NCBI GenBank assembly: GCA_044225365.1
Contig: JBGAIQ010000006.1
Location: 113,236 to 177,235 of the forward strand
Reading direction: 5' to 3'
From: Planctomycetota bacterium
GTDB lineage: Bacteria > Planctomycetota > B15-G4 > JADJEK01
Length of the DNA stretch: 64,000 nt
In this document: piece after piece, positions 14,114 to 40,205 of the stretch
Layout: the number at the start of each line of letters is the position of its first letter
How positions within the stretch are numbered: position 1 is the stretch's first letter
Position numbers and translations under genes: made by a program
Notes under the pieces: generated by a model
Databases searched by the model: none
What the model was told of the DNA's origin: nothing
Seen by the model: only the letters and a program-made list of their open reading frames with translations

Positions 14114-14130
14114 GAAAGCCGGCCGGAAGC

Positions 14131-14174: not shown

Positions 14175-14190
14175 GGTCTGACGAATTCGA

Positions 14191-16512: not shown

Positions 16513-17013
16513 ATGCGTACGAATCCAGCATTGCGGCACCGTGTCGAACAGGATCTCGCCGCGCTTCTCGACGTCAACGGAGCGCGACGACGAGCCGCGC
16601 GACTCGATCTCGTCGCATTCGGGCCTCGCGTCTCGGGTCTTCTCGAGTATCGCCTTGCTCACGGCAGCCCGGCGCAGCGGATCGCCGCTGCCCACGTGCT
16701 GAGCGACGTCCCGAGTGATCGGGCCATCCTCGCGCTGCTCAGGAGTTTCGAGGATCCCGACCCCGGCGTACGTTTCTCCGCGGCCGACGCGCTCGCGGAA
16801 CATTCCGAACATGCCATCCGTCCCCTCCTGCGCGCGCTGATCGATCGCGGGCACTCGCCCTGGTTCCGCGAATGCGCGGCGCAGTGCTTCTCACGGCTCT
16901 CCGGGCGGGGCGTGCGGACGGGTGCCGGCCGCGTCGCAGCCGCACTGCTCGACTCACGCCGCTTCGTGCTGATCCCGCTGCTCGCGTTGGAAGCCCTCTC
17001 CGGCGACGGATGA
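16513..17013 (+). CDS. HEAT-repeat protein
   Basis: GAAGGAG RBS; repeats QRIAAAHVL..RAILALL and DPDPGVRFSAADALAE..AIRPLL. Confidence 0.7.
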   Translation: MRTNPALRHRVEQDLAALLDVNGARRRAARLDLVAFGPRVSGLLEYRLAHGSPAQRIAAAHVLSDVPSDRAILALLRSFEDPDPGVRFSAADALAEHSEHAIRPLLRALIDRGHSPWFRECAAQCFSRLSGRGVRTGAGRVAAALLDSRRFVLIPLLALEALSGDG

Positions 17014-22459: not shown

Positions 22460-23040
22460 TGGGAAACGGCTCCCGTCGTCTCCGGTCCGCCGGTGATCGC
22501 TCGAGGGGGCAAGCGAGGCGGGAGAGAGGCGTTCGACTTCACGAGCTTCGCGACGAACACCGAGGCTGCGCAGAGCGAGAGGCTCCACACGCTCGCGATG
22601 ATCGGGATCGAACGCTCGAGCGGCTCGCCGAACTTCACCGCGCCGAGGCGTTGCCCGGCGAGGTAGGAGAGCGGTGCCGCGACCGCACCGAGCACGGCGG
22701 CGAGCGCGACTCGCCCGACGATCCAGGAGAACGAGTGCAGGAAGGTGGCGGCGAAGAGAACCCACATCGCCACGATCCACGGTGGGCAGAGATACGGAGA
22801 AAGTTGTCCGGAATAGGCGAGAGCACCGCTCGAGGCGACTACCGAATCGACGACGAATCCGAACGGGATCGCGGCGAGCAAGACCTTCGATTCGAGTCGC
22901 CGGTCGCGGACGAAGAGCAAGTGAACGAAGGCGACGGCGAGGAGCGTGAACGTCGCGATCCACGGGCGGCCGTTGCCCGCGAGGATCACCCCCGCGAACC
23001 AAGCACCCTGGAACAGCACGAAGTTCACGAAGTTGCGCAT
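22456..23040 (-). CDS. DUF2878-family membrane protein
   Basis: NFVLFQGAW, PPWIVAMWVLFAATF, APLSYLAG; usual neighbour of cfa/DUF1365. Confidence 0.85.
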   Translation of the reverse strand: MRNFVNFVLFQGAWFAGVILAGNGRPWIATFTLLAVAFVHLLFVRDRRLESKVLLAAIPFGFVVDSVVASSGALAYSGQLSPYLCPPWIVAMWVLFAATFLHSFSWIVGRVALAAVLGAVAAPLSYLAGQRLGAVKFGEPLERSIPIIASVWSLSLCAASVFVAKLVKSNASLPPRLPPRAITGGPETTGAVSQ

Positions 23041-24350: not shown

Positions 24351-25165
24351 GTTCGAGGGGTCCTGCTCGGCGCTTCTTTTACGTCCCCGACCGCCTTCTG
24401 GTCGGAAAGGGTGGGGTGCGAATAGAACGTGGCGCCCTTCAGCCGCAGCCGAAGAGCCTGCCAGTAGATCGCGAGAACGACCTTCGCCGTGAGCCAAGGG
24501 TGGACGAGCAGAGTTCGAGCGAGTGAAACCGCCGACATCTCGCGACGTGATAGGGCCATCGTCGCCGCGAAGAACACGCGACCGCCGCGCGCGTTCTCCA
24601 TGTGAATCGATGCTCGGTCCTCGGGCACAGTGAACTTCCAGTCATACTCGCAATCCATGGCGATGAACGGCGAGACGTGGAACGTCTTGGCGAAGTGAAA
24701 CTGCAGAGCCAATGTGCCGCGAGTCGCCGCGGCCGCGGCATCCAGCACGTAGGTGTGTCGCTCGAGCCAGGGGGTGTTCGTGATCTCGGCGGCGATCGCG
24801 TCGAGAGCGCCGGCAGCGTCGTAGCAGTAGTAGAACGTCACCGGATTGAACGAGAGGAAGAACATCCGCGGCGTCGTGAGCATTCGGACGCGTCCGTTCG
24901 GGCGCCGTCCGAGTCGTTTCTCGACGGTATCGAGGACCGCTTGCTTCAACGGGACGGCCGCGTCGCCGTGATAGTCGGCGCGCCGGAACCAGGCCAGAGC
25001 CGGACGCGACGTGGACCAGAACCAGCGTCCGGCGAAGACCGTGTCGAGTTCGTCGAGATCGAGCAGGACGAAGCAGACGTCGTACTCGAACTCGTGTGCG
25101 ACGGAATCGTTTCGCGCATGTCGGACTCTGCCGAAGTAGAGCGCGTTGTTCGAGGCTCCACTCAC
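24347..25165 (-). CDS. DUF1365-family protein (UfaO-like)
   Basis: GRVRHAR, FNPVTFYYC, EITNTPWLERHTY, KTFHVSPF, IYWQALRL.KG. Confidence 0.9.
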   Translation of the reverse strand: MSGASNNALYFGRVRHARNDSVAHEFEYDVCFVLLDLDELDTVFAGRWFWSTSRPALAWFRRADYHGDAAVPLKQAVLDTVEKRLGRRPNGRVRMLTTPRMFFLSFNPVTFYYCYDAAGALDAIAAEITNTPWLERHTYVLDAAAAATRGTLALQFHFAKTFHVSPFIAMDCEYDWKFTVPEDRASIHMENARGGRVFFAATMALSRREMSAVSLARTLLVHPWLTAKVVLAIYWQALRLRLKGATFYSHPTLSDQKAVGDVKEAPSRTPRT

Positions 25166-26403
25166 GACAACGCCTCCCCGAACGCCCGTGCGACGGCGAG
25201 TCCGCTCTTCACTCCGTCCTCGTGGAACCCGTAACCGAGGTAGGCCCCGCAGTAGAACGTGTTCCGGACTCCTTGGATCGAATCGACGCGCGACTGCGCT
25301 TGGATTGCGTCCCGCGTGTAGATCGGATGTTCGTATTCGAACTTCTGCAGGATCGCGCCGCTGGCGAGGCGCTCGTCGCGATTCAGGGTCACGCAGTATT
25401 CGCGCTTCGACGTGAGGGACTGCAGCCGGTTCATCCAGTAGGTCACGCCGAGTTCACCTTCTCCGTCGCGATGGTAGTTCCACGCCGCCCAGGCCTTTCT
25501 CCTCCGGGGCAGGATCGACGAATCGGTGTGCAGGGTGACGGCGTTCTTCTGATACGGGATCGCGGAGAGGACGGCACGTTCCGCGTCACTCGGATCCTCG
25601 AGCATGCGTAACGCTTGATCGCTGTGGGCCGCGATGATGACGCGATCGAATCTCTCCACCGTGCCGCCGCGCGTCCGGACGTGTACGCCGTCCGCGTCGC
25701 GTCGCACGCTCGCGATCGGGCAGTTGGTTCGAACCGAGTCCTCGAAGCCAGCGACGAGTCGCTCGACGTAGGTCGACGAGCCGCCCTTCACGACGTACCA
25801 CTGCGGACGATCGTCCACCGTCAGGAATCCATGATTGTCGAAGAAGCGCGCGAACGTCGGGAAGGGGAACTCGAGCATCCGCGAGGGCTCCGCCGACCAG
25901 ATCGCGGCGCCCATCGGCACGATGTAGCGCTCGACGAAACTTCGGCCGTATCCGTGCTCGCGAATGAAGTCACCGAGAGTGATGTCGGCGGAACCATTCG
26001 CGGCAAAGCGCGTCGCGTCGCGATTGAATCGCAGGATGTCGCGCACCATCGACAGGAAGCTCGGGCGGAGGAGATTCCGTCGTTGCGCGAAGAGGGTATC
26101 GAGCGAGGTTCCGTTGTACTCGATCCCGGAGTCCTCGCACCGCACCGAGAAACTCATGTCGCTCTTCTGGGAGGCGACGCCGAGCGCTTTCAGCAGTCGA
26201 ATGAAGTTCGGATACGTGCGTTCGTTGAAGACGATGAATCCGGTATCGACCGCGAGCTCGCGATCCTCGTCGCGGACTCGCACCGTGTGCGTGTGGCCGC
26301 CGATCCAGTCGTTGGCTTCGAATAGGGTGACCTCGTGGTGCCGGCGCAACAGGTACCACGCCGTGAGACCCGAGATCCCCGCTCCGACGATGGCGATCTT
26401 CAT
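25162..26403 (-). CDS. FAD-dependent oxidoreductase, amine-oxidase family (UfaD-like)
   Basis: GAGISG, GGHTHT, VDTGFIVFNERTYPN, AWAAWNY, GYGFHEDG. Confidence 0.9.
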   Translation of the reverse strand: MKIAIVGAGISGLTAWYLLRRHHEVTLFEANDWIGGHTHTVRVRDEDRELAVDTGFIVFNERTYPNFIRLLKALGVASQKSDMSFSVRCEDSGIEYNGTSLDTLFAQRRNLLRPSFLSMVRDILRFNRDATRFAANGSADITLGDFIREHGYGRSFVERYIVPMGAAIWSAEPSRMLEFPFPTFARFFDNHGFLTVDDRPQWYVVKGGSSTYVERLVAGFEDSVRTNCPIASVRRDADGVHVRTRGGTVERFDRVIIAAHSDQALRMLEDPSDAERAVLSAIPYQKNAVTLHTDSSILPRRRKAWAAWNYHRDGEGELGVTYWMNRLQSLTSKREYCVTLNRDERLASGAILQKFEYEHPIYTRDAIQAQSRVDSIQGVRNTFYCGAYLGYGFHEDGVKSGLAVARAFGEALS

Positions 26404-27404
26404 GATCGTTCCGGCTGCACGTTCTTCGGATCACGGGCCTCACGACGGACTCCGGCACGCTCGCCGGGATAGACGTGCGCAGGGACGGGGCGCAGATCCG
26501 AGATGAGCCCGAGAGCTTCGAGGACGCGCAATCCCAGGTACGTGATGTCGATCTCGTACCAGGCGAAGCCCTGCTTCACCGAGTGCGGGTAGTGATGGTG
26601 ATTGTTGTGCCAGCCCTCGCCGAACGTGAGCGCCGCGAGCCACGGGTTGTTCCGACTTTCGTCGCCCGTCTCATAACGCCGGGAGCCGAAGCGGTGCGAG
26701 AGTGAATTGATCGTGCAGGTCGCGTGGAAGAGCACCACGGTCGAGATGAAATACCCCCAGACCACGAGTTGCATTCCGCTCGTCCCGAGTTGCGGAGATG
26801 CGAGTTCCAGGAACCGACCGACGGCGTAGAGGGAGGCGGCGAGGATCAGGGGGGCGAAGGTGTCGAAGCGGTCGAGGAATCTCAGTTCCCTATATCGGGC
26901 GAGATCGGGAACGGCTCCCACGGGAGTCGCGAAGTTCTCCTTCGACATGATCCATCCCATGTGCGACCAGAGCATCCCGTGCCGACCCGGTGAGTGAACG
27001 TCGTCCGCGGTGTCGCTCACTCGATGGTGATTGCGATGGTGTCCCGCCCACCACAAGGGTCCGCGCTGCGTCGCGGTCGCGCCGGTGAAGGCGAAGACGA
27101 ATTGCATGAATCTCGAAGTACGGAACGAGCGATGGGAGAAGTAGCGGTGATAGAAGCCGGTGATGGCGAACATCCGAACGGCATAGAGCACGAGCGCCGC
27201 GGCCACCGCGATCGTGCTCACGCCGTAGACGAATGCGAGCAGACACGCGGCATGCAGCAGGACGAACGGCAGGCATCGCAGCCAGTCGATCTCCTTCGTC
27301 GTCGGGTTCGCCATCGGAGCGTGCGCGTTGTCGAACCAACGCCGCAACGTCGCAAGCACACTCGAGCGAAGGCCCGTGGATCTCTCCGCCGATCGAGATC
27401 TCAC
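26400..27404 (-). CDS. acyl-CoA/acyl-lipid delta-9 desaturase
   Basis: His boxes [20 protein letters not shown]; start taken as the GTG overlapping the upstream stop (alternative ATG at 27314). Confidence 0.92.
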
Positions 27405-28462
27405 GAGCGCCCTCCATTGCGCTTGCTGAAGAGGTAGTGAGCGACCCACCACTCCGAGCCATCGTTCCAGGCGAACAGCTCCGCGCAAGCGAGGAAGAAG
27501 ACGCGCCAGCGTTGGAACCACTTCTCGCCCTCGCCCGCGCCGTACGTGCGATCGAAGAGCGCGATCACGGCATCGCGATGGCGATCGATCCGATCGAGCC
27601 AGGCTTCCGCCGTCCTCCCGTAGTGGACGCCGCTCACGACCCAATGGTCGTCCGCGGCGAGATCGTCCTGGAAGTGCAGAAAGAGGTCGTCGGAGGGCAT
27701 CTGGCCTCCGGTGAAGAAGTACCTCCCCATCCAATCGTCGTCGCTCTCGGTCTCGAACGGATAGGCCGCCTGCTTGTGACAGAAGACGTGGAAGAACAGC
27801 TTGCCGTCGGCTTCGAGCCAGGTCGCGATACGCGCGAAGAGCTCCTCGTAGTTCCGAAGGTGCTCGAACATCTCGACCGACACGACCCGATCGAATCGCG
27901 CTTCGCCTGCGTGCTGCGGCGGCTCGAACGTGTTGATGTCGGCCGTGATGATCTCGACGTTCGTGCGCCCGATCTCCGCGAGTCGTTTCTCGATGTGCTT
28001 CTTCTGCGACGCGGAGTTCGAGACCGCGACGATCCGGGCATTCGGATACCGCTCCGCCATCCAAACGGTGAGCGATCCCCAGCCGCAGCCGAGTTCGAGG
28101 ATCCGCTGGCCATCCGCGAGATTCGCGCGTTCGCAGGTCATACGGAGCATGTCGGCCTCGGCGACGTCGAGGTCGGCCACCCCTTCGTTGAAGTAGGCCG
28201 AGCTGTACTTTCGATGACGACCCAGCACGAGTTCGAAGAACTCGGGCGGCACTTCGTAATGCTGCTCGTTGGCAGCGCGAGTCTCGATCGCGAGCGGACT
28301 CTGCCGCAACGCCTCGATCCAACGGCGCTGACGCTCACTGCGCGCCTCGACTCCGCCGCGTTCGAGCTCGCCGATTCGACGCTTCAGGAGCCTTCGAATG
28401 CCGTAGCGGAGCATGGGCCGCGGCACGATGCCTTTGTCGATGATGGTGTCGAGGAGGGGCAA
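27401..28462 (-). CDS. CFA-synthase-like SAM-dependent methyltransferase
   Basis: [45 protein letters not shown]. Confidence 0.9.
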
Positions 28463-28471
28463 GTTCGAACC

Positions 28472-29275
28472 TCAGGCTGAAGTACGGGGGAACCAGGGAA
28501 TGAACGGGCTCGTGGTGCGCTGATACTCGCGATACGCGTCGCCACGCGAGCGGAGCGCCTGCGTCTCGGTCGGCGGGATGCCGGTGACCTTGAGCACGAG
28601 GAGGAGCATCACCGGCGGCGCGATCCAGGTCATCCAGTCGTAACTGAAGGATCCGCCGCTCGCGAGGATGGGATACGCGAGCCAGTGCAGCCACTCGAAG
28701 AAGTAGTTGGGATGCCGAGAGTATCGCCACAGGCCGACACGACAGACCTTGCCTCGATGACTCGAATCCGATCGGAACCTCTCCAATTGTCGGTCGGCGA
28801 CCGCCTCACCGAGGATCGATGCGACGAAACAGGCACCCCCGAACGCCAGTGGCAGCGCAGTCCCAGGAGGATCGAGAAGGACACCGAGACAGGACAAGGA
28901 CAGCACGACGACGGAGAGAGCCTGAGCCTGGAAGAAGCCGAAGAACCAGCCGTGCGCCGAGGCGCCTTTCGCGGCGCGGATCGCCGCATAACGCCCGTCC
29001 TCCTTCACGTGCCCGAGGACGCGGTGCGCAAGGAGATGCCACGCGAGCCGGACGGCCCACGTGCAGACGAGGACGACGACGACCCACGACGCCGCATCTC
29101 GCCGCTCGAGCGCGATCGCGTAGAAGATCGCGGTCGGCGCGAAGGCGAACGACCAGACCACATCGACGATGCTCGCGTCCTCCCGACGCTTCTGGACGAC
29201 CCACGCGGCCGCGAAGAGGACGGCAAGGCCGCCCCAAGCGAGCAGGAGGATCGAGGTCGTATGGAGCACCGTCAT
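28472..29275 (-). CDS. DUF1295-family membrane protein (steroid 5-alpha-reductase-like)
   Basis: IVDVVWS, EDGRY, ADRQL, GLWRYSRHPNYFFEW, TGIPPTE, YQRTTSPFIPW. Confidence 0.9.
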   Translation of the reverse strand: MTVLHTTSILLLAWGGLAVLFAAAWVVQKRREDASIVDVVWSFAFAPTAIFYAIALERRDAASWVVVVLVCTWAVRLAWHLLAHRVLGHVKEDGRYAAIRAAKGASAHGWFFGFFQAQALSVVVLSLSCLGVLLDPPGTALPLAFGGACFVASILGEAVADRQLERFRSDSSHRGKVCRVGLWRYSRHPNYFFEWLHWLAYPILASGGSFSYDWMTWIAPPVMLLLVLKVTGIPPTETQALRSRGDAYREYQRTTSPFIPWFPRTSA

Positions 29276-29293
29276 GGGAGTCTCGTCCTCCCC

Positions 29294-29321
29294 TTCGCAG
29301 CCGGCACCCAACCTGGATTCA
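29294..29321 (-). promoter_or_regulatory. candidate ECF (SigK/RpoE-type) promoter TGAATCC-N17-CGAA
   Basis: Minus strand reads TGAATCC-aggttgggtgccggctg-CGAA just upstream of the GGAGG RBS of the DUF1295 gene; resembles ATCC...CGAA/CGTA ECF promoters. Confidence 0.4.
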
Positions 29322-29362
29322 ACCGCCTGTCTTTTTTTCGAGATGAGCCGCGTCCGTCGGGG

Positions 29363-32266
29363 TCATGGGACCTTGCACCGTTCCAAGCCGGCCTTCGCCG
29401 CATCGAGCAGCCCGCCACGCGCTCCGAGATCGATCACGCGCGAGTAGCACGCCTTTGCGAGCGGCTTCGCATCGTCGCCCTCCGAGCACTCGTAGACGCG
29501 CCCGAGTTGGAAGAACGGCTCTGCGGTGTACGGAAAGGCCTCCGCGAGACCCCGAGCGTCCGCGGCGAGCTTCGTATCGGCGTGATCGCCGCGAGCGAAT
29601 CGCTCCGTGCGCGCGGTGATCGCTGCGAGACGATCGATGTACGCAGGGGACGCCCCCTTCAGGAATTCGTCGCTGATGCGCGTCATCGCATCGATGTCGC
29701 CATCGTTCGCGAGTCGGTCGTAGACGCGGGATCGCAACGCGAGGTTGCCGGACACCGCGAGAAGTCTCTGAGTGATCGCCGTGACATCGCGATCGACCCG
29801 GGATACGGCGTCGATCAGCGCCCGATCCACTGCGCCGGTGCAGGCCGTCTCGATCGCCTCCGGGCGCGTACCGACGAAGAGTCGGCGTCCGAGGCGTTGA
29901 TCGAGGGTGTCCGCGATTCGAGCAGCGTCGTTGCGATCGTGATCGAGGCCGGAGACGACGAAGTCGCACGCCGAGACTCCGACCGCGAACTCGGCATCCG
30001 CATAGACAGCGAAGGCCGGTCGCGAGAACGGGAGTTGAGTGGGACCCGAATCGACCCACTCACCGCCCGCCGCGATCACCGTCCTCGCGACGAGCGCCGC
30101 GAGCAACGCAGCCCCTTCCGACCCGCAGAGGTAGGCCCCCCTGGTCACGCGAAGCACATCGATCACGTCGTCGACTCCGCGCGCTTCGGTCGGCAGCGAC
30201 AATCCGAATCGCTCGCGTGCCCCGTGATCCGCGGCGCCGAGGAACGCCTCGATTGCGGCCGGCGATTCGATCGCAGCCCAAGGCGAGCTGAACTTGCATT
30301 GCGCGATCGCGTCGCGCGCGACCTCGCGCATCATCTGCGCGGACGGGAGCGCGCACGCTCCTCCGAGTCGCCGCGCGTCGTCGAGCGGGATCGAGTAGAA
30401 GTTCCACCGCGATCCCTTGTCGTCGAGCGCCGAGGTCGCTGCGAAGAGGAGCTTCCCTCCGGCGACACTCATCCCGACGCCGTCCGTGCCGCCGAGGAGG
30501 CGTTCGCGCGAGCCGTCCGCATGAATCCACCAGATCCCGTAGGTTTCGTTCTCCGGGGCGCCCGTGAAGAGGACACCGTCGTCGGCTCGCGCCAGTTCGC
30601 GCAGGTACGAGTATCGCAGCAGGTCGGTACGCACGCCGCTACGGAGGTCCAGGCTCGAGAGGGAGCCGGGACGATCCCCCGAAACGTCGACCTCGGTGAC
30701 GCCGACGTACAGGAGCTTCGCCGACGCATCGAGTTGACTATCTCCGACCCAGCCGGGTCTCCACGTCGCGATCGGTCGCTCGGCGCCATCCACTCCACGC
30801 AAGACGAAGTCGATCGGAACCGCGGTCTCTTGGACCACGAACCCGAGCGGGACGGGACCCTTCGTCGCATTCGAGTAGCGGACGAGCGCGATCCCAGAGT
30901 CGGTCTCGCCGCAGAGTCGCGTCGCGGAGAACGACACCGGGGCCTCCTGGCCTTCCGGGCCGATTCGAACGAGTCCGTCACGGCCCTGCGTGATCAACGA
31001 GTTGCCGAGCGTCGAGACTCCCCGACCCTGTACCTCACTCCCTTCGTAGAGAGGTTTTGCAGCGACGAAGTCGCGCTCGATTCGCAGGATGGACCGGCGA
31101 GTCGTGACGAGGATCCCACCGTCGAGGGCGGCATCGGCATCGACGACATCGAAGTCGAGGCTCGTAACGAATCGGCTCGCCGAGAGGAAGGCGGCGAACT
31201 CCGCTCCAGGTGTCCTGTGCGCCTTGGAAGCGGGCGGCAGCGTGAAGGGATCGAGGGGTCGAGGAGGATCGATCGTGATCGAATCGATCAAGGCCCGACG
31301 GATGCGGGAGACGGATTCGACCGGCGCTGGGTAGATCAGTCGGATGTCGATCGTTCTCTCGGCGGAGATCTCCGCGACGATCATCTCGATCATTTGCCCC
31401 TTGTTCCCAGGCATCTGGCGGACTTCGCGCAGGGCCGGCTTTCCGGCGAGTTGGAAGCGAGTGCGCGGCATCTCGGCGGGGATCGACTCGTCGCACCCGA
31501 CCTTGGCGACGATGTCGTCGAGTACTCCCTCGAGTCCCGCGGGATCGGGCTTCGAACCTCGTAGGAAGTGGACCGCCACGTCCCCGTTGGGGCTGACGAG
31601 CGAGAGCAGAGGATCGTTCGCGACCTTCTTCGCGTCGATCTCCGCAGGCACGTGCGAGACACGCACGGCCGAATCGTCGACTCGCACGATGCGGGTGCGC
31701 GGGCGCGTCGACCGTCCCCACGGGCTCTTCGCGCTCGGGAATTCGAGAGCGGTCCGAAGCTTCGTCCCATCGGCCTCGCCGTCCTTCGCGCGATCGGCAT
31801 CGATCTGGGACAGGATTAGGAAACCTAGTCCATTGCGCGATACGACCTGGACCACTGCGTGGCGTCGAACCTTGAGCTCGGTGATCTCGCACGAGAGTCG
31901 GCTCCAGTCGGTCTCCGTCGTCGAGGACTCCGAGGAGTGGAACTCGAACTCCGACGTGATCTTCGCGTCGAGATTGCGGTCGAGCGCACCGAACCAGTTC
32001 TCGATCACTCGTCGATGATCGGCCTCGACATCGACGGTTTGGCCGCACTCGACGACGAACAAGTACGTGTACGCCTTCTTCTCGGAGTCCACCTCGCGAA
32101 CGAACTGGTCGTCGCCGGCGCTCGCCACGATCCGCTGCCGCCTCCATCCCTCGTCGCAGTGCATCTTCGCGCCATGGGTCCCGATGTCGAAGTCTTCGCG
32201 CGCGATCGAGACTCGAGCCCCGGCGAGACATGCGAGCGCGACGATTCCATCGGCGATTCGGCGCAC
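29363..32266 (-). CDS. large (967 aa) secreted hypothetical protein
   Basis: GTG at 32266 after AAGGAGG; signal-like N-terminus; beta-rich middle; TPR-like C-terminus (FFQLGRVYE...AKACYSRVIDL). Confidence 0.7.
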   Translation of the reverse strand: MRRIADGIVALACLAGARVSIAREDFDIGTHGAKMHCDEGWRRQRIVASAGDDQFVREVDSEKKAYTYLFVVECGQTVDVEADHRRVIENWFGALDRNLDAKITSEFEFHSSESSTTETDWSRLSCEITELKVRRHAVVQVVSRNGLGFLILSQIDADRAKDGEADGTKLRTALEFPSAKSPWGRSTRPRTRIVRVDDSAVRVSHVPAEIDAKKVANDPLLSLVSPNGDVAVHFLRGSKPDPAGLEGVLDDIVAKVGCDESIPAEMPRTRFQLAGKPALREVRQMPGNKGQMIEMIVAEISAERTIDIRLIYPAPVESVSRIRRALIDSITIDPPRPLDPFTLPPASKAHRTPGAEFAAFLSASRFVTSLDFDVVDADAALDGGILVTTRRSILRIERDFVAAKPLYEGSEVQGRGVSTLGNSLITQGRDGLVRIGPEGQEAPVSFSATRLCGETDSGIALVRYSNATKGPVPLGFVVQETAVPIDFVLRGVDGAERPIATWRPGWVGDSQLDASAKLLYVGVTEVDVSGDRPGSLSSLDLRSGVRTDLLRYSYLRELARADDGVLFTGAPENETYGIWWIHADGSRERLLGGTDGVGMSVAGGKLLFAATSALDDKGSRWNFYSIPLDDARRLGGACALPSAQMMREVARDAIAQCKFSSPWAAIESPAAIEAFLGAADHGARERFGLSLPTEARGVDDVIDVLRVTRGAYLCGSEGAALLAALVARTVIAAGGEWVDSGPTQLPFSRPAFAVYADAEFAVGVSACDFVVSGLDHDRNDAARIADTLDQRLGRRLFVGTRPEAIETACTGAVDRALIDAVSRVDRDVTAITQRLLAVSGNLALRSRVYDRLANDGDIDAMTRISDEFLKGASPAYIDRLAAITARTERFARGDHADTKLAADARGLAEAFPYTAEPFFQLGRVYECSEGDDAKPLAKACYSRVIDLGARGGLLDAAKAGLERCKVP

Positions 32267-32304
32267 GGAACTTCCTCCTTCGGACGCCCGCGCGCGGGCC
32301 CGAG

Positions 32305-33081
32305 TCACGGCTGAGCGAGTGCAGCGATGCGGGATCGGTCCGAAACCACCACCCCGCCCGGTTTCTCCACGGTCACGGCGAACAACGCGGGCTCGGTCAC
32401 GCGAATCTTCGCTTCGATCGGCACGATCGCGTCCGGGCCCTCGCAGTCGAACACGCCGCCATCGACCGGGTAGCGATCGTCGCGCGTCTTGTCGAAGATC
32501 CACAGTTGGTATTGCTCGGCCTTGGCCTCGTTCGCTTTGAGGCCATGGAAGACCATGAAGCCCCGCTGCTCCTCAGAGGACCACACCACCTCGCCGTTCA
32601 TACCGGACCCGGTTCCAAGCGGATCCGGCCCGGCCTTCCAGTTCCAACGCTTCACATCGTGCGCGCGCGCGACGAGGCGATCCACCTCGAGTTGCGCCGC
32701 GGCGAGCGAGCGGTCGCCGAAAGTCTCGCGGGGAGTCTTCAGCAGGAAGAGGAATCCCGTGAGGACGACTGCGGCTGCGGCGAGATAGACGAGCGTATGC
32801 AAGCGGCGGAGTCCCTTGGGCGCCGATCGGGACTCGCCGGCCTGGGCCGTCGCCCGCAGGATCCGATCCCGCAGTGATGGCGGTAGCGGCTCCCGATCGC
32901 GCGCAGCGATCGCAAGGTCGGCCTCGGCGACGGTCTCCATCAGCACTCGACGGGGCACGTCGCGATGTCGCGCGAGCAGATGATCGAGTTCGCTGCGTTC
33001 CGACGCCGCGAGGCAGCCGAGGGCCTCGTCGGCGAGCAGTTCGAGCAAGCGCTCGCGCTCGGTTCGAAGAGTGCCGCTCAT
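32305..33081 (-). CDS. RskA-type anti-sigma factor
   Basis: ELLADEALGCL..SE, PPSLRDRIL, single TM, C-terminal QYQLWI...VDGGVF...FAVTVEKPGGV; ATGA overlap with the sigma gene. Confidence 0.88.
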   Translation of the reverse strand: MSGTLRTERERLLELLADEALGCLAASERSELDHLLARHRDVPRRVLMETVAEADLAIAARDREPLPPSLRDRILRATAQAGESRSAPKGLRRLHTLVYLAAAAVVLTGFLFLLKTPRETFGDRSLAAAQLEVDRLVARAHDVKRWNWKAGPDPLGTGSGMNGEVVWSSEEQRGFMVFHGLKANEAKAEQYQLWIFDKTRDDRYPVDGGVFDCEGPDAIVPIEAKIRVTEPALFAVTVEKPGGVVVSDRSRIAALAQP

Positions 33082-33662
33082 GATGGGACCTCCGCCGAAC
33101 CCGAAGCTCGGGGGTCGCCGGGTCGATCGTCCACTTCACCAAGGAGTCGCTTCACGGCGAGCAGTCCGCGGCGAGCGTGGGACTTCACCGTCCCGAGCGG
33201 CAGCTTCAGCAGACGGGAGATTCCGTCGTGTGAGATCCCCTTCATGATCGAGAGTTCGAGGATCCTGCGGCGTTCGGGATCGAGTGTGTCGAGAGCTTTC
33301 CGCACTCGCGAGGTCTCGTCCCCGATCTCCGCGACCGACTCCTCGGGAATGGGCGCGGATGGTTCGGCGACATTGTCGAGCGATGCGGTCCCTGCCTGAC
33401 GCTCGGCCTGACGACGACGATCGACGATTCGCCGCCGCGCGATCATCGCGACGAACGCGGCCTCGGGCGCGATCGTCGCATCGAAGCGCGCGGCCGCCTT
33501 CCAGATCGCGACGAAGGCGTCCTGCGCGGCGTCCTCCGCGTCGGCGGCGCTGTACGACAATCGGCGAGCGAGCGACCAGACGAGACCACCGTAGCGATCG
33601 AGACACTCCTCGACCGCCTTGGGATCACCTCGCCCGATACGTTCCAGGATCGATTCGCTCAC
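33078..33662 (-). CDS. ECF sigma factor (SigK-like)
   Basis: DAEDAAQDAFVAIWKAAARFD, IARRRIVD, GISH..IS..LKLPLGTVKSHARRGL; GTG start at 33662. Confidence 0.92.
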   Translation of the reverse strand: MSESILERIGRGDPKAVEECLDRYGGLVWSLARRLSYSAADAEDAAQDAFVAIWKAAARFDATIAPEAAFVAMIARRRIVDRRRQAERQAGTASLDNVAEPSAPIPEESVAEIGDETSRVRKALDTLDPERRRILELSIMKGISHDGISRLLKLPLGTVKSHARRGLLAVKRLLGEVDDRPGDPRASGSAEVPS

Positions 33663-34069
33663 GCGCTCGCAACTGCCTCCAACGTCGCCCTGCGCACGGA
33701 CTGCGCGGGACGAGGAGGATGGAACCGAATTCTGCGCGGCATCGCAACCGGGAATCAGGGCGATCTCGTCGATCTCGCATTCGCGACCGTGCGGGTGCGC
33801 TCGCGCATCTCTTGCCCAGGCAGCGTGAATCACCGCGAACGGCGAAGAAGCCGCCTCGAATCCGGTGCAGGTGGAGACCAAGGTTCTCGGGCTCTCGTTT
33901 CGAGGTTCGGTCGCGCGCCGAGACGGAGTGCCTCTACGATCCCGCGCAACGGCTGTTATCCTGTGGCGAGCCCGCGACGGATGCAGCGAAGCCGGAAAGA
34001 CTCGTTGCGAACGGCGATCAGGTCGCAGTACACCAAGGCGTTCATCGAGAGACGAAGAGACCGGGCAGC

Positions 34070-35482
34070 ATGTTCGAGCGATTCACCGACACGGCGGCGG
34101 AGGCGCTGCGCATAGCGGAGCGCGAGGCGGATGCCGCGTGCCGTAGTGCGGTTGGGAGCGAGCACCTGCTCCTCGGGCTCTTCCAGGTGCGAGCCGTCGC
34201 CTCGATCGTGTTGAGACAGTCGGGGGGAGATCTCGACCGCTGCCGCGCCCATCTCGCGAAATCGATGGGTGGCGCTCACGTCGCGATCGCACGTCACCTC
34301 CGCCGCGCGCTGCGCAAGAGCCTTGGCGACGTATCCCAGCGCTACAGCACGAACCTCGCCCGAGTGCTCGCCCTCGCGGAGGAGGCCGCTCGCGAACTCG
34401 CACACCCCAAGGTGGGGACCGAGCACCTGCTCTGGGCGCTCGTCGAACACGCGGATGGAATCACTCGATCTTACTTCGAGTCGATCGAACTCTCACCGGA
34501 GCAAGCTCGGCGACAGATCCTCGAGATGCTGCGCGTCGCGCAGACGGCGTTGAAGGATCAGGGAGCGGACGATCGTCGCGGAAGGAAGCGTCGGTCACCT
34601 CTGCTCGACATGTTCACGACGGATCTCGTGCGTCGCGCGCGAAAGAACAAGCTGCCGCGATTGATCCGCCGCACTGCCGAGGCGCAACGCATCCACGAGG
34701 CGATGCTCCGCATGATCGCGCGCAATGCGCTCGTCGTCGGCGAGAACGGGTGCGGGAAGACCGCTCTCGTTCAGACCTTTGCCAAGGAGATTGCGCTCGG
34801 CGGAGCCCCGGAACCGCTCCTGCGCAAACGCATCCTCGAACTCGATCCCATCCTCCTCGTCGCCGGCACGAAGTACCGCGGGGAGTTCGAAGAACGGATC
34901 ACGAACCTCCTGCTCGAGATCCAGAAGGCGGGCGACGTCATCCTCTTCATCGACGACGTCCATCTCCTCGCACTGCCGTCCACCCAGGGCAGGAATGACG
35001 GCGCGGCCGGTGTGTCGAATCTGATGCACTTGCTCTCGCCCGCGATCGATCGATTCGAGGTGCAGATGATCGCGACCTGCGCCAAGAGCGCCGAGTCGCG
35101 GGTCATCGAGCAGTTCCCGACGCTCGGCACCGCGTTCCACCGTATCGTGCTCTCCCCTCCCAGCCGCGACGTGGTGCTCGCGATCCTGAACAAGAAGCGA
35201 CCCGAATACGAGGCTCATCATCGCCTGCGGATCGAGCCCGCGGCGCTCGCGACCGTTCTCGCCGCGGCCGAAGCGTCGCTCGGCGTGGATCCATCGGAAT
35301 CGCTCGTCGTCTCCGCACTCAAGATGCTCGATCGTGCCGCGTCGGAGGCCGTGCTCGATCGCGAACTGCGCAACCGCGAACGCACCGCCCTCGATGCCGC
35401 AGCCGTACGCGAACTCCTCGTCCTCGCGCAGGCGAACCCGCGCCATCCAACGCCAACGGCGAAGGCGGATTCGAATGCTTGA
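34070..35482 (+). CDS. ClpC-like protein 1: Clp N-domain + single AAA+ (D1) module
   Basis: MFERFTD, GSEHLLLGL and GTEHLLWAL repeats, Walker A GENGCGKT, pore loop AGTKYRGEFEER, Walker B ILFIDD; 470 aa, no D2. Confidence 0.88.
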   Translation: MFERFTDTAAEALRIAEREADAACRSAVGSEHLLLGLFQVRAVASIVLRQSGGDLDRCRAHLAKSMGGAHVAIARHLRRALRKSLGDVSQRYSTNLARVLALAEEAARELAHPKVGTEHLLWALVEHADGITRSYFESIELSPEQARRQILEMLRVAQTALKDQGADDRRGRKRRSPLLDMFTTDLVRRARKNKLPRLIRRTAEAQRIHEAMLRMIARNALVVGENGCGKTALVQTFAKEIALGGAPEPLLRKRILELDPILLVAGTKYRGEFEERITNLLLEIQKAGDVILFIDDVHLLALPSTQGRNDGAAGVSNLMHLLSPAIDRFEVQMIATCAKSAESRVIEQFPTLGTAFHRIVLSPPSRDVVLAILNKKRPEYEAHHRLRIEPAALATVLAAAEASLGVDPSESLVVSALKMLDRAASEAVLDRELRNRERTALDAAAVRELLVLAQANPRHPTPTAKADSNA

Positions 35483-37193
35483 ACGAGCTTCCGAACGCTG
35501 CCGCGACGCGCTCGAACGGGCGCGGCAACACGCCCTGCGGTTCCGCCACACACGGATCGGCACTTCGCATCTCCTGCTCGGCCTGCTCGACGAGGGCGCC
35601 GGCGTCGGGACATCGACGCTCCGTCACCTCGGTGTGGAGGTCAAGGTCGTCCGCGCCGAGATCGAGAGTCGCCTGCAGCCGGGAGCCGGAGTGATCGGGC
35701 GCAAGGCGATGCCCTTCGACGAGGAGTGTCGTGCGGCGCTCGCCGCGGCCGTGGGAGCGGCGAAGGAGCGCAACAGCCCCTACGTCGGCACCGAACACCT
35801 GCTCCTCGGTCTGCTCGCCGACGCTCACAGCTTCTCCGCTCGCGTACTCGACAAGTTCGGGATCACGCACAACGACGCCGCCGCGGCAGCCGCCGAGTTG
35901 AAGGCGGATCCGCAGCGCCCCGCGTCCGCCCGGGCGCAGGATTCCCGGGATCGCAAGCCGCGTTCGCCTCGCCTCGGACCCACGAGCCAGCTCGACACCA
36001 TCGCCGTCGACCTCGCGAATCGCACGCAGCGCCGTCAACTCCGTCCCGTATGTGGTCGCTTCGCCGAACTCGAACGCATCAAGCACCTCCTCTCCCAAGA
36101 GCCACGCACTTCGGTATTCGTGCTCGGCAAGAGCGGAGTGGGCAAGACGTCGGCAGTGTTCGCGCTCGCGCGCGACATCCTCATCGGCAGCGTCCCGTCC
36201 GCACTCCTCGGCAAGCGCATGCTCGCGATCGATCCCGTACGACTTGCCGCGGGATGCCGGCACAAGGACCAGCTCGAACAACGCGTCGACGAGATCGTCG
36301 CGCAAGCCGAACGCGCACGCGACGTGATCCTCGTGTTCGACGATGCCGGCTGGCTCTTGAACGGGGTGCATGACATTCATGATCACCACGACGGCCACAT
36401 CGGCCACTTCGAGGGAACGACGCACTCGCTCCAGCGCGGTCGCGAAGCGCGCGACGACGCGCCAGCCGGACTCGAGAGCGAACGACCGTCCAACCCGGAC
36501 GTCACCGACATGTTCGCGCGCTTCCGACCGGCGCTCGAAGCGCGCCGACTCCAGGCGATCCTCACCCTCGCGCCGAACGGCGAACCGGACGCGGAGAGCA
36601 AGCTCCTGCGGGCGAACTTCGGTGATTGGTTCGAATGCGTCTCGCTCTTCCCGGCCGACATCGATCGGACTCTGATGACGGTCTACGAACTGCGGGAGCA
36701 ACTCGAGAACCATCATCGGGTGACCATCACCGAAGATGCTCTGAAGACCGCCGTCCAACTCGCCGTTTCGGCGGGCGACAAGAACGATCTGCTCACCACC
36801 GCGCTCCGCCTCGTCGACGAAACCGGAGCACGCCTCACCGCACGCGCTTTCACCCCACCCGTTCGCGCCACCAAGCTGGTTCGCGAGATCGAGAAGCTCG
36901 AGGCCGCGCGCTCCGAGGCGTTCGAGCGCAAGGATCATTCCGACGCCGCACGACGCTTCGACGAAGCTCGCGCGAATCGTGAGCTGCTCGAACAGATCGA
37001 GCGACGCTGGCGCACGGAGCTTCGCGAGAAGCTGCGGGTCGTCGACGAGACCGCGATCGCGGAGACCTGGTCGATCCACGGCGGTTATCGTACGGCTGAG
37101 CCGAATCGAGCGACGCCGCGGGCCGACGCTCCATCGTTCGAACCGCCCACCGAACCCACCGAGTCCAGCAAGCCATCGGACGGCGGCGCATGA
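35475..37193 (+). CDS. ClpC-like protein 2: Clp N-domain + D1 + UVR-like M-domain, with His-rich insert
   Basis: GTSHLLLGL and GTEHLLLGL, GKSGVGKT, AGCRHKDQLEQR, ILVFDD, coiled coil EIEKLEAARSEAFERKDHSDAARRFD; 572 aa; 8-bp overlap with paralog 1. Confidence 0.85.
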   Translation: MLERASERCRDALERARQHALRFRHTRIGTSHLLLGLLDEGAGVGTSTLRHLGVEVKVVRAEIESRLQPGAGVIGRKAMPFDEECRAALAAAVGAAKERNSPYVGTEHLLLGLLADAHSFSARVLDKFGITHNDAAAAAAELKADPQRPASARAQDSRDRKPRSPRLGPTSQLDTIAVDLANRTQRRQLRPVCGRFAELERIKHLLSQEPRTSVFVLGKSGVGKTSAVFALARDILIGSVPSALLGKRMLAIDPVRLAAGCRHKDQLEQRVDEIVAQAERARDVILVFDDAGWLLNGVHDIHDHHDGHIGHFEGTTHSLQRGREARDDAPAGLESERPSNPDVTDMFARFRPALEARRLQAILTLAPNGEPDAESKLLRANFGDWFECVSLFPADIDRTLMTVYELREQLENHHRVTITEDALKTAVQLAVSAGDKNDLLTTALRLVDETGARLTARAFTPPVRATKLVREIEKLEAARSEAFERKDHSDAARRFDEARANRELLEQIERRWRTELREKLRVVDETAIAETWSIHGGYRTAEPNRATPRADAPSFEPPTEPTESSKPSDGGA

Positions 37194-38707
37194 TCGATGC
37201 AAATGCCGCAGGAGCGGAGGTCCAGGCATCCGCCCTCGAAGAAGCCATGACCGACACGACCGCGCCAGCTCCCACCGGATTGCTCAGCATCGCGATGCAC
37301 GAAGCTCGCGAACTGTCGCACGATCACGTGGGAACCGAACATCTCCTGCTCGGACTCCTGCTCGAAGAAGGCGGAGCCGCACGGGCGATCCTGAACGAGC
37401 AGGGCATCACGGCCGAGCAGCTCCGAGCCGAGTTGAAGCGGGCGATCGGCGCGTCGACCGAAAAGGCTTCGAACAGTCCGCTCCCCATCACTCCGCGAGT
37501 GAAGCAAGCCCTCGAGAGCGGCGCCGAGGCCGCGCGACGCACCCATCACGGCGACGTTCGGTCGGAGCACGTGCTGCTCGGACTGCTCGATCAGGCCGAT
37601 GGCCTCGCGCGGCGCGCGCTCGAGCGTTTCTCCGTCGACATCGATGAATGCCGCCGCCGCACGCAGGAGCGCCTGCGAAGCGACGCACAGAACGACGACA
37701 AGCCCGAGCCGCGCGAGGCCGAGATCCCGGCGCTCGAAGCGTTCGGCGAAGAAGTGGCGGTTCGCGAATCCGAGAGCCTCGGGCTCGCGCCCATTCCGCC
37801 ATTCGACCATGCAGTGCTCGTCGGACTCCTGCGGCGGGAGAATCGGGCGATCCTTCTGTGCGGAGCGAGCGGCTGCGGAAAGACGAGCGCCGCGAAACGG
37901 CTCGGCGCCGCATTGCGTTCACGACGCGGGGCGTTCGAACTGCCGCTGCGCCGTCTCGTCGCGATCCCGCTGCCCTGCATCGTCGCCGGCGCGCGACACC
38001 GCGGGCGAGTCGAGGAACGCCTGCGCATCGTGTTCAAGGAAGCGGCGGAGAGTGGCGACGTCGCGCTCTTCTTCGACGACTTCGAGTGCGTCCTCGGCTG
38101 CAACGAACTCGCGCTCGCGCTCGAACTCGCGATGGCGGCTTTCACGATCCCGATCGTCGCCGCCATCGATACGGTGGCTCTCGAGACGCTCGCTCGCAAT
38201 CACCCCTCGCTCTACTCGCGATTCGTGCGAATGGCCGTCCCACCGCTCCTCGAGACCGCGCTCGATGCCGCGCTTCGCGAGCAGGCGAGGCGACTCGAGC
38301 AATTCCATTCGATGCGGATCACGGATGCTGCGCTCGTCGCTGCCGCCGATGCCGGTTCGGCCGATTCCCGCGGCCACGGCGCGTCGCGCCTGTCGAACGC
38401 GATCACGTTGCTCGACCGCGCGGCCGCCGCGGTTCGCGCCGCGATGCTGCGGCCGTCGCCTGCGATCAAGACCGTGCTCGCGGATGCGATCCGCTTCGAG
38501 CGCGAGGCCGATCAGGCCGCCGCCGAGGGTGACGAGCGCCGATGCGCGAGTCTCGCCGCCAAAGCAGGCGCCTCGCGAGCGACCGCTCACGCGCTGATCC
38601 TCGCGTTGTCCTCCACGGCATCTTCGGTCGAACTCACGGCCGAACACGTCCAAGTTGCGCGTCGTCGCGCCACCGCACGTCCGCCTTCACCCAAGATGCA
38701 CACCTGA
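37190..38707 (+). CDS. ClpC-like protein 3: Clp N-domain + D1
   Basis: GTEHLLLGL and RSEHVLLGL, GASGCGKT, AGARHRGRVEER, LFFDD; 505 aa; ATGA overlap. Confidence 0.85.
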   Translation: MIDANAAGAEVQASALEEAMTDTTAPAPTGLLSIAMHEARELSHDHVGTEHLLLGLLLEEGGAARAILNEQGITAEQLRAELKRAIGASTEKASNSPLPITPRVKQALESGAEAARRTHHGDVRSEHVLLGLLDQADGLARRALERFSVDIDECRRRTQERLRSDAQNDDKPEPREAEIPALEAFGEEVAVRESESLGLAPIPPFDHAVLVGLLRRENRAILLCGASGCGKTSAAKRLGAALRSRRGAFELPLRRLVAIPLPCIVAGARHRGRVEERLRIVFKEAAESGDVALFFDDFECVLGCNELALALELAMAAFTIPIVAAIDTVALETLARNHPSLYSRFVRMAVPPLLETALDAALREQARRLEQFHSMRITDAALVAAADAGSADSRGHGASRLSNAITLLDRAAAAVRAAMLRPSPAIKTVLADAIRFEREADQAAAEGDERRCASLAAKAGASRATAHALILALSSTASSVELTAEHVQVARRRATARPPSPKMHT

Positions 38708-38717
38708 CAGGGCCAGA

Positions 38718-40205
38718 ATGTTCGAACGCTTCACCGATCGCACGCGCCGCGTGCTCGTCCTCGCGCGCCAGCACGCCCATCGCATGCAACACGCGGCACT
38801 CGAGGCGCATCACCTCCTGCTCGGAATGCTGGAAGAGGCGAAGGCGACCGACGGCAGCGCGGAGCGACTCCTCGGCATCGACATCGAGAGCGCCAAGGCG
38901 ATGGTCGATCGGATCGCGCCGCTCGGCAACCGTCCACCCGACGCTCACGACGCGCTGCCCTTCGGTCCGTCCGCGCGTGCACTCCTCGTGCGCGCCACCG
39001 CCGAGGCCGATGCATCGCGTTCGGAGGGCGTCGATCTCGAACACCTCGTCCTCGCGCTCGCGCTGGATGAGAGCCACCCGGCGGCCAAGCTCGTCGAACA
39101 GAACGGACGATCGCTCGAACAGGTTCGTCGCGACGTGCGGGACATCCTCGCCCCGCGCGCGCACGAGCTCGAGTCGGTCGTCGAGGAGACGCATCGCACG
39201 CCTGCCCTGGATGCGTTCTGCCACAATCTCGTCGATCGCGCTCACCAAGGCCAGCTCGACCCGTTCGTCGGCCGAGGCGCCGAACTGGAACGTCTCTACG
39301 AGATCCTCTTGTGCCGCCGCGACGCCAACGCGCTGCTCGTCGGATCGAGTGGTTCCGGCAAGACCGCGCTCGCCCGCGGTCTCGCGATCGCCATCGCCGA
39401 AGGCACGGCTCCCACACCGCTGCTGTCGGCCAAGCTCTTCGCCGTCAACTCGCTTGCTCTTCTCGCCGGCACGCGGTATCGCGGGCAGCTCGAAGAACGC
39501 GTGAAGGCGCTGCTCTACGAAGCACGCAAGCTCTCGCAGGTCATCCTCTTCATCGACGACGCACAAGCGTTGCTCGGCGAAGAGGGCGCATCGACCGCTT
39601 GGCTCACCCACGACGTCCCCGGCGCCGGCTTCCTCTCGATGTTGAAGCACGCCTTCGACGCCGCCGAGACGAGGTTCATCCTCGCGCTCGACAGTGCGGC
39701 GCTCGCGCGCTTCCGCATCGCGCAGCCTTCGGCGCAGCGCCACCTCCAGGAGATCGACGTCGCACCGGCGAGCAAGAGCGAGACCGGTGACATCCTTCGC
39801 GCACTGAAGCCCCAGTTCGAGCTCTATCACGACGTCCGCATCGACGACGCCGCTCTCGCGACCGCGGTGCTGCAACGCCCGCGCCTGCAATCGCCGGGAG
39901 ACCCCAAGGACCGTGCGCTGCCGGGTCGAGCCGTCGATCTCATCGATCGGGCGTGCTCGGAGATCGCGCTCGCCTCGACCGAGCCGACCGAGGACCTGAA
40001 GCAGATCGAATCCGAGATCGCGCGACTCCAGCACGAGGAAGCGGAGAACGTGAAGGCGCGCGAATACATCGCGGCCGCCGCTGGCCGCGAAGCCCTCGAC
40101 ACCCTCGAGAAGCGCCGGGAGCGAATCCTGTCGGAGCGTCGCGGTCAACGCGCCGTCGACGCCGCCGCGATCGAGCGCGCGGCGGCCAGTCTCGCCGGCG
40201 TCTGA
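38718..40205 (+). CDS. ClpC-like protein 4: Clp N-domain + D1 + M-domain
   Basis: MFERFTDRTRRVL, LDPFVGR..EL, GSSGSGKT, AGTRYRGQLEER, ILFIDD, RALPGRAVDLIDRA; 495 aa. Confidence 0.88.
   Translation: MFERFTDRTRRVLVLARQHAHRMQHAALEAHHLLLGMLEEAKATDGSAERLLGIDIESAKAMVDRIAPLGNRPPDAHDALPFGPSARALLVRATAEADASRSEGVDLEHLVLALALDESHPAAKLVEQNGRSLEQVRRDVRDILAPRAHELESVVEETHRTPALDAFCHNLVDRAHQGQLDPFVGRGAELERLYEILLCRRDANALLVGSSGSGKTALARGLAIAIAEGTAPTPLLSAKLFAVNSLALLAGTRYRGQLEERVKALLYEARKLSQVILFIDDAQALLGEEGASTAWLTHDVPGAGFLSMLKHAFDAAETRFILALDSAALARFRIAQPSAQRHLQEIDVAPASKSETGDILRALKPQFELYHDVRIDDAALATAVLQRPRLQSPGDPKDRALPGRAVDLIDRACSEIALASTEPTEDLKQIESEIARLQHEEAENVKAREYIAAAAGREALDTLEKRRERILSERRGQRAVDAAAIERAAASLAGV

Follow-up and report, generated by a model that had tools for sequence, protein, structure and literature searches.

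A conserved cassette of four ClpC-like genes without a second AAA+ module in a planctomycete, and the mixed ring its products may form

Hsp100/Clp unfoldases are textbook homo-hexameric double-ring motors. Here we describe a cassette of four adjoining genes, G1 to G4, encoding short Clp-like proteins in a 64,000-nucleotide stretch of DNA from a Planctomycetota bacterium (GenBank assembly GCA_044225365.1, contig JBGAIQ010000006.1, positions 113,236 to 177,235 of the forward strand; hereafter the window). Each product has a Clp N-domain and the first AAA+ module (D1) of a ClpC-type protein, and lacks the second (D2):

34070-35482, plus strand: G1, 470 amino acids (aa); Clp N-domain and ClpC-type D1 AAA+ module
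35475-37193, plus strand: G2, 572 aa; N-domain, D1 and an M-domain-like coiled coil
37190-38707, plus strand: G3, 505 aa; N-domain, D1 and M-domain-like helices
38718-40205, plus strand: G4, 495 aa; N-domain, D1 and M-domain

The co-oriented genes are tightly packed into 6.1 kb, with coordinates and junctions as given in a preliminary description of this DNA: the ends of G1 and G2 overlap by 8 bp, an ATGA overlap joins G2 to G3, and a gap of 10 bp lies between G3 and G4. We read these overlapping or nearly abutting ends as translational coupling. G3 may start instead at an ATG at 37247, giving 486 aa, because its orthologs' N-termini align from that codon and its structural model has low predicted local distance difference test (pLDDT) scores over the first ~28 residues; this start would turn the ATGA overlap into a 53-bp gap. 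Third-position G+C of the open frames is high, as expected for real genes in a genome of 65% G+C; the stop-to-stop frame of G1, which includes 786 upstream bases, failed a crude third-position G+C filter.

Profile searches placed all four products in the N-terminal half of the Clp architecture. Pfam Clp_N (PF02861) scored above its cut-off in 4/4 proteins (27-90 bits), AAA in three (G2 reached 17.1 bits against a cut-off of 21.2) and AAA_lid_9 in three (G1, 20.8 against 22.8); at E<=0.01 AAA and AAA_lid_9 were both matched in all four, and AAA_2, ClpB_D2-small and UVR in none. Only the first ~270-445 positions of the NCBIfam ClpA, ClpB and ClpV models, which are 734-853 positions long, align to G1-G4, with scores of 110-212 bits against cut-offs of 885-1232; the ClpG and ClpK models also fell far below cut-off. 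Lacking D2, the proteins also lack a ClpP-docking loop of the LGF/IGF type. The N-domain and first AAA+ module that the preliminary description had recognized in every product, and the missing D2 and docking loop, are thus borne out, while the UVR motif it had expected a profile scan to find was detected in none. Its proposal that all four proteins end near the D1/D2 linker stands for G2, which reaches the junction motif and continues into a ~30-aa tail, and for G4, which ends exactly at the junction, but needs correction for G1, which by alignment ends at around ClpC residue 460 and lacks M-domain and D2 alike. G1 shares this end point with its four orthologs (M-domain absent in 5/5), and the G1 type has a junction-like motif directly after the D1 small domain. 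The M-domain coiled coil is visible by alignment in G2, G3 and G4, and as helices 425-477 in the G4 model. We rejected identification as ClpV of a type VI secretion system (T6SS), as D2 is missing and three of the four proteins scored lower with ClpV than with either ClpB or ClpA; the Pfam scan of 47 window open reading frame (ORF) translations contained no T6SS family at the thresholds used, although no search was aimed at T6SS.

Each of the four genes has metagenome orthologs of its own, and of its own short length. The G4 type has five (P0006-P0010; 487-494 aa, 55-59% identity), the G1 type four (P0137-P0140; 469-494 aa, 50-58%), and the G3 and G2 types three each (P0125-P0127, 459-479 aa, 41-46%; and P0255-P0257, 489-508 aa, 44-57%). 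Below these, matches drop to full-length ClpC and other Clp-N proteins at ~29-36% identity. Identity is 41-59% within a type against 21-30% between types, and within-type conservation extends over the N-domain (50-65%), the large subdomain of D1 (43-64%) and the M-domain of G4 (62%). We built maximum-likelihood trees of the N-D1-M region by quick searches with Shimodaira-Hasegawa-like approximate likelihood ratio test (SH-aLRT) support, one of 68 rows and one of 40 rows that left out three long-branch rows and 25 more dropped for speed. In both, each window gene formed a clade with its own orthologs at SH-aLRT 100; the split into four types must therefore predate the last ancestor shared by their carriers. 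The four clades sit among planctomycete ClpC and other short forms. In the 40-row tree the family nests with planctomycete ClpC in a clade of SH-aLRT 100 that contains neither ClpC of other phyla nor the genome's own ClpB, and in the 68-row tree it also lies within the ClpC part. As judged from these trees, G1-G4 are four anciently diverged paralogs of planctomycete ClpC.

The types also appear to travel together. We infer co-location from the equal size in bp of each protein's longest contig, not from the contigs themselves: G1, G3 and G4 types share contig sizes of 8,936, 28,242, 32,058 and 55,109 bp, G1 and G3 types one of 16,710 bp, G1 and G4 types one of 13,083 bp, and G1 and G2 types one of 15,719 bp. 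Such shared sizes are hard to explain unless the paralogs of the cassette are co-located in other organisms as well. Their carriers are scarce. We found no G4 ortholog in 30 relatives, neither the cassette nor a G4 ortholog in 41 other genomes of the class, and, at E<=1e-85, no G4 ortholog among 400 genomes sampled from the phylum. Scanning one genome per GTDB species with a pattern drawn from the G4 alignment gave 53 loci with a best identity of 39%, and therefore no ortholog. A metagenome scan with the G1 ortholog P0138 gave 12 loci, all 28-35% identical; P0138's own 15,719-bp contig was not among them, and the nine ORFs lying whole within their contigs are ClpC-like genes of 824-928 aa. Two short-ORF matches in relatives (L078 and L088, on contigs C143 of genome G006 and C871 of genome G004) were rejected as short forms, being ClpC-like genes cut by contig ends; most of the other short matches in relatives, among which is one on C815 of genome G009, are on short contigs. 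The cassette is rare yet conserved.

Conservation is also seen among close strains. Contigs from four other public runs (three studies), ~94-96% identical to the window, cross all three gene junctions and the spacer between G1 and the sigma-factor gene upstream of it; on account of these shared junctions we rejected an artifact of assembly or annotation. Among the best-supported 40 of 969 strain differences, 22 fall inside the four genes, 19 of them synonymous and 18 at third codon positions. We conclude that the truncated architecture is under purifying selection and is not decaying, because the orthologs of every paralog keep the same short length and strain variation is mostly synonymous. 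Decaying, functionless remnants of full-length clpC duplicates would account for the degenerate catalytic motifs described below and for the absence of the cassette from 41 class and 400 phylum genomes, but would not be expected to retain intact frames, 15 orthologs of the same length, mostly synonymous strain differences (19/22 within the genes, from the best 40 of 969), confident fold predictions for G4 and G3, and conservation of all domains within each type; we strongly disfavor this explanation, which has very little chance of being right. The preliminary description had argued for selection on the same grounds of intact frames, naming full-length ClpC orthologs among the things that would overturn it; all 15 orthologs are short (459-508 aa), each gene forms its own clade, and its argument gains accordingly.

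The catalytic motifs of these conserved proteins are altered in a shared way, although all four products keep a P-loop. G1 has Walker A GENGCGKT, Walker B FIDD, pore loop GTKYRG and no arginine finger; G2 has Walker B VFDD, a degenerate pore loop (CRHKD) and no arginine finger; G3 has Walker B FFDD and a pore loop in which Tyr is replaced by His (GARHRG) in all four G3-type members; and G4, the most ClpC-like of the four, has Walker B FIDD and pore loop GTRYRG. Across the 19 proteins of the cassette family (four window genes and 15 orthologs) Walker B is DD in 19/19, compared with DE in 14/17 full-length relatives. The Walker A lysine is retained in 15/19 and is Arg in the remaining four. The arginine-finger pair (ERRFQ in ClpC) is gone from the G1, G2 and G3 types, window G3 keeping one Arg, and is reduced to one invariant Arg (RH; Arg341 in G4) in 6/6 G4 types; by one alignment RR is retained in 1/19 family proteins. 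The pore-loop Tyr is retained in 5/5 G1 and 6/6 G4 types, but in only 1/4 G2 and 0/4 G3 types. The family thus departs from the catalytic D1 of class I Clp proteins, with its hhhhDE Walker B and trans-acting arginine-finger pair, and the catalytic site appears blunted; the "pseudo-enzyme" suggested by the preliminary description fits these motifs, the one arginine left in the G4 type apart.

Other functional positions are distributed unevenly over the four types. In S. aureus ClpC, F436 is reported as the M-domain tip contact, and E32 and E106 as crucial residues of the phosphoarginine (pArg) pockets (PMC12583610). The M-domain tip is aromatic in 6/6 G4 and 3/4 G2 types and not aromatic in G3. 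The N-domain repeat-2 Glu, equivalent to E106, is retained in 19/19, while the repeat-1 Glu, equivalent to E32, is found in all G1 and G3 types, in 1/4 G2 types and in 0/6 G4 types. Because ClpB has the same repeat-2 Glu, this residue is not diagnostic of pArg binding. In G2 of the window, Walker B is immediately followed by ~45 inserted residues rich in His (36330-36470); the insert is specific to this genome, as the three G2 orthologs lack it; it could be a metal-binding loop or just a tolerated expansion.

Structure prediction agrees with the ClpC assignment. AlphaFold2 models of G4 (pLDDT 90.5) and G3 (pLDDT 88.9) show an alpha/beta core and the N-D1-M unit of ClpC, the best Foldseek matches of the G4 model are ClpC structures or chains, and in a sequence search of solved structures ClpC1 and ClpC rank first. 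The closest solved structures are those of M. tuberculosis ClpC1 (8a8u), S. aureus ClpC (6em8 and 6em9) and B. subtilis ClpC (3j3s). A prediction of the complex between G3 (residues 172-505) and G4 (160-495), with a 69-row alignment for each and run without controls, gave a median score of 0.30 against a mark of 0.32, a result that weighs on neither side of the question of binding.

The cassette proteins thus share with full-length ClpC the two-repeat N-domain, the D1 with AAA_lid_9 and, in G2-G4, a short coiled coil like the M-domain; ClpC supplies their best sequence and fold matches, and they branch among planctomycete ClpC. They differ from it in lacking D2 and docking loop, in having DD for DE at Walker B, and in having lost the arginine fingers save one in the G4 type. 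ClpC is described as a hexamer of one protein (PMC12583610), whereas the cassette operon encodes four distinct paralogs. We conclude that G1-G4 are ClpC derivatives that lack defining features of a class I Clp unfoldase, namely D2, a catalytic Walker B and a ClpP loop. A laboratory construct comes close to their outline: according to its title, PDB entry 3pxg holds a ClpC 1-485 fragment crystallized with MecA (six chains, 468-residue sequence), which covers N-domain, D1 and M-domain and ends at the D1/D2 junction. There, an active enzyme was shortened by engineering; the truncation in the cassette is natural and conserved, with degenerate catalytic motifs. ClpI of Actinomycetota offers a precedent for an additional ClpC-like class defined by bioinformatics, some members of which lack a ClpP-binding motif; ClpI is described there as double-ringed with intact ATPase motifs, unlike the cassette proteins (PMC10149685).

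Could the cassette work on ClpC itself? The genome encodes a full-length ClpC of 838 aa on contig C97, with an mcsB-like arginine kinase just upstream, as well as ClpB; clpP is absent from the window's contig and has matches on C28 and C90, in keeping with the earlier remark that neither clpP nor mcsB lies by the cassette. A third double-ring Clp of ~793 aa (C33:195425-197806, plus strand) has a divergent N-domain, no M-domain and intact Walker motifs in both rings, and is either ClpA-like or atypical. The main rival to the explanation we favor is that the four proteins act on full-length ClpC, by co-assembling with it or by capping it via their M-domain tips, and thereby repress, activate or retarget ClpCP; we regard this as unlikely, and it is compatible with the proteins also binding one another. 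The ClpC resting state is reported to be maintained by contacts of the N-domain with M-domains and AAA1, and by head-to-head contacts between M-domains; the cassette carries N-domain, AAA1 and M-domain, which are the resting-state and adaptor surfaces of ClpC in that account (PMC12583610). An action on ClpC would also suit the retained M-tip aromatics of the G4 (6/6) and G2 (3/4) types, the invariant E106-equivalent Glu (19/19), the nesting of the family in the planctomycete ClpC clade at SH-aLRT 100, and the presence of a full ClpC adjoined by a kinase gene. On the other hand, clpC and mcsB sit on another contig, so that the cassette is unlinked to them; with an identity of only 28-34% to the genome's own ClpC, D1 rings of mixed origin become less likely; an M-domain is missing from G1 and the M tip of G3 is not aromatic; the repeat-2 Glu is also that of ClpB; and four conserved, distinct paralogs exceed the needs of a simple modulator.

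A related possibility is that the proteins are decoys or sponges, like mycobacterial ClpC2: by soaking up pArg-tagged proteins, adaptors or natural products that target ClpC, their N-domains would buffer ClpCP. The N-domain is indeed the most conserved part, or equally so, of each type (50-65%), and the genome has an mcsB-like kinase. ClpC2 is described as a non-proteolytic, pArg-linked paralog (bioRxiv 10.64898/2026.06.30.735635), and as a partial ClpC paralog beside the full-length enzyme it resembles the cassette proteins. But ClpC2 has no AAA+ module, whereas the cassette proteins keep the whole of D1 and, in three of four, the M-domain. A decoy would need the N-domain alone, yet conservation extends to D1, to the G1 and G4 pore loops and to the M-domain of G4; the repeat-1 pocket Glu has been lost in 6/6 G4 and 3/4 G2 types; and the scanned window ORFs include no biosynthetic gene cluster. 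We consider the decoy explanation improbable.

The distribution of the defects over the four types bears on whether they work apart or together. Four independent homo-oligomers with separate jobs, adjacent only through tandem duplication, would be in keeping with the solitary occurrence of D1-only Clp-like proteins elsewhere, such as a 437-aa copy in this genome, and with the many single representatives of ~490 aa returned by a library search. This explanation has, like the decoy, a small chance of being correct: the four types remain adjacent after diverging to 21-30% identity, their genes overlap or nearly abut, and their defects are complementary, with the arginine confined to the G4 type and the pore Tyr to the G1 and G4 types. 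Old paralogs that have been kept together, are coupled, carry different functional subsets and share a common catalytic substitution therefore favor a mixed ring, and we count the translational coupling in its favor.

We suggest that G1-G4 form a hetero-oligomeric single-tier ring that binds ATP, hydrolyzes it poorly, and holds clients while being unable to feed ClpP; this is our preferred explanation, which we hold tentatively, at a little under an even chance. In Clp proteins with two rings, D2 is the principal motor while D1 chiefly supports assembly, and Hsp100 proteins mutated at Walker B act as substrate traps. Since the cassette proteins have neither a D2 motor nor a ClpP-docking loop, clients would be held and not threaded into ClpP. 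The four products would together build one mixed tier, shaped as a ring or a spiral, and ATP would serve as assembly glue and not as fuel, with slow turnover or none. The pore-loop tyrosines of G1 and G4 would grip polypeptide, G4 would supply the sole trans-acting arginine, the M-domain tips of G2 and G4 would make ring-ring or partner contacts, and all four N-domains would dock client or adaptor. That the subunits assemble with one another, bind nucleotide without turning it over and hold clients is our inference from the sequence features above. A more specific version appears doubtful to us: a ring of fixed order, locked by ATP, which would trap clients independently of ClpP, may act on pArg-marked or stress-damaged proteins and may be turned on along with the adjoining extracytoplasmic function (ECF) sigma stress module, with D1-only Clp proteins as an overlooked class of pseudo-ATPases.

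By analogy, the pattern seen in the cassette would match hetero-oligomeric AAA+ assemblies with dead subunits. Chloroplast FtsHi, Torsin with LAP1 or LULL1, and clamp loaders are built from separately encoded AAA+ paralogs, some with dead sites, and in Torsin-LAP1 the partner supplies the arginine finger. None of these systems has a Clp N-domain, all of them fall in different AAA+ clades, and hetero-assembly is demonstrated there whereas for the cassette we propose it; we draw the comparison as an analogy only (PMC8197885, PMC4999309, PMC10500165).

Several points weigh against the mixed holding ring. Co-location could merely reflect tandem duplication, and in the trees the four clades unite at SH-aLRT 97 (68 rows) and 81 (40 rows). 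The co-location itself was read from contig sizes, and the G2-type orthologs are tied to only one shared contig. Four subunit types fit a hexamer poorly, with no simple mapping of one onto the other. With Asp instead of Glu at Walker B, slow hydrolysis may persist, and nucleotide binding is not universal, as the Walker A Lys is Arg in 4/19. The strain comparison takes in contigs above a likeness threshold of 80%, some of which may come from other organisms, and draws on the best-supported 40 of 969 differences. Because 41 other genomes of the class lack the cassette, it is dispensable for that lineage; its rarity, and an assembly deduced from sequence, also limit its significance. If the mixed holding ring is nonetheless correct, the cassette would be a bacterial example of a route to hetero-oligomeric AAA+ assemblies with dead subunits that starts from a protease-coupled unfoldase, and a natural counterpart of laboratory Walker-B "trap" mutants. 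It would also draw attention to the many short Clp_N+D1 proteins that surveys have set aside as fragments; under the trap-ring reading D1-only Clp proteins would be a widespread AAA+ pseudo-ATPase class and not annotation fragments. At 6.1 kb, the four-gene system can be tested directly by co-expression.

D1-only Clp proteins are common outside the cassette. Clp_N+AAA+AAA_lid_9 proteins of ~430-580 aa occur in databases in several phyla, under the names "ClpC" (JGI) and "AAA family ATPase" (NCBI); a representative library holds many single D1-only forms of ~480-510 aa, and ESM Atlas clusters of 55-185 members come mostly from Actinomycetota, Acidobacteriota, Planctomycetota, Pseudomonadota and Bacillota. 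The ClpI survey left most of the shorter sequences out of account, regarding them as "possibly fragmentary genes" (PMC10149685). Among 28 D1-only proteins that we picked, a sample biased by being chosen from matches to the degenerate G2, cleanly placed ends lie near ClpC residue ~500-513, Walker B DE is kept in 3/28 and RR in 4/28. The D1-only proteins that can be placed in a genome occur singly (here, on C70 of the same genome), and in neither tree does any other D1-only protein fall inside the four cassette clades. Our search of the literature outside subscription journals and supplements found nothing on D1-only ClpC-like proteins or on a four-gene cassette. The undescribed system announced by the preliminary description therefore narrows: the D1-only Clp architecture is already widespread and not unique to this locus, and what is special is the conserved cassette of four paralogs.

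The solitary protein on C70 (55128-56441, minus strand; L084:5129-6442) has 437 aa, a Clp_N domain and a P-loop module with intact Walker A and ED at Walker B, and lacks M-domain and D2. Its gene is flanked by thiamine-phosphate-synthase-like and AIR-synthase-family (thiL-like) genes, and it has no close ortholog in 30 relatives. Single-module D1-like Clp ORFs of 455-607 aa (L054, L055, L058, L061, L062, L065-L068, L071, L073, L074 and L076), 22-33% identical to G1 or G4, occur in Desulfobacterales, Coprobacillus, other Bacilli and Bacillota, and one Bacteroidales metagenome-assembled genome; single-ring D1-type relatives of Clp thus exist beyond Planctomycetota too. Three full-length ClpC-like proteins of 773-812 aa (P0306, P0312 and P0305) branch among the short forms with D1 Walker B DD, ED or RD; two have a D2 P-loop and none was found in P0306, and the three may be intermediates between ClpC and D1-only forms. 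The 726-aa metagenome protein P0233 combines, by precomputed Pfam annotation, an ATP:guanido phosphotransferase (McsB-type kinase) with Clp_N, UVR, AAA and AAA_lid_9, and has the look of an arginine kinase naturally joined to a D1-only ClpC.

Upstream, the cassette faces a divergent sigma/anti-sigma pair:

33078-33662, minus strand: ECF-type sigma factor (Sigma70_r2, Sigma70_r4_2, Sigma70_ECF); start GTG at 33662 placed by eye
32305-33081, minus strand: anti-sigma factor with RskA_C domain; its gene overlaps the sigma gene's end
33663-34069, no strand: intergenic region of 407 bp between the divergent ECF sigma gene and G1

The spacer presumably holds promoters for both the sigma gene and G1. 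A sigma-70 and terminator scan found no sigma-70-like site in 33663-34069 and nothing terminator-like at the operon ends. GGAAC-N15-18-CGT, which we take to be an ECF-type promoter pattern, is absent from the intergenic region; the window as a whole contains 19 copies, where 13.7 would be expected. No Rfam family matched, either across the window or within 33500-34200. The sigma/anti-sigma pair heads a minus-strand run (23028-33662) that includes a 1046-aa protein without family match, DUF1295, two CMAS-like (cyclopropane-fatty-acid-synthase-like) genes, an amine oxidase and DUF1365. We take this gene set to resemble the lipid-modifying core of ECF-controlled regulons for singlet-oxygen and oxidative stress; if so, the Clp-like cassette adjoins a stress module.

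PADLOC found no defense system, giving generic P-loop matches only (mad8, TRIP13 and IetA, E 5e-5 to 9e-4) and none at all for G2, G3 and the 1046-aa neighbor. At 12125-16577 and 21410-23002 the window has ORFs of 383-662 aa on both strands that have no Pfam match at E<=1e-5 and failed the crude G+C filter. Downstream, the cassette is met by a convergent ThuA/3-keto-disaccharide hydrolase gene, and the remaining window has the appearance of ordinary chromosome, with a composition that is flat across the locus.

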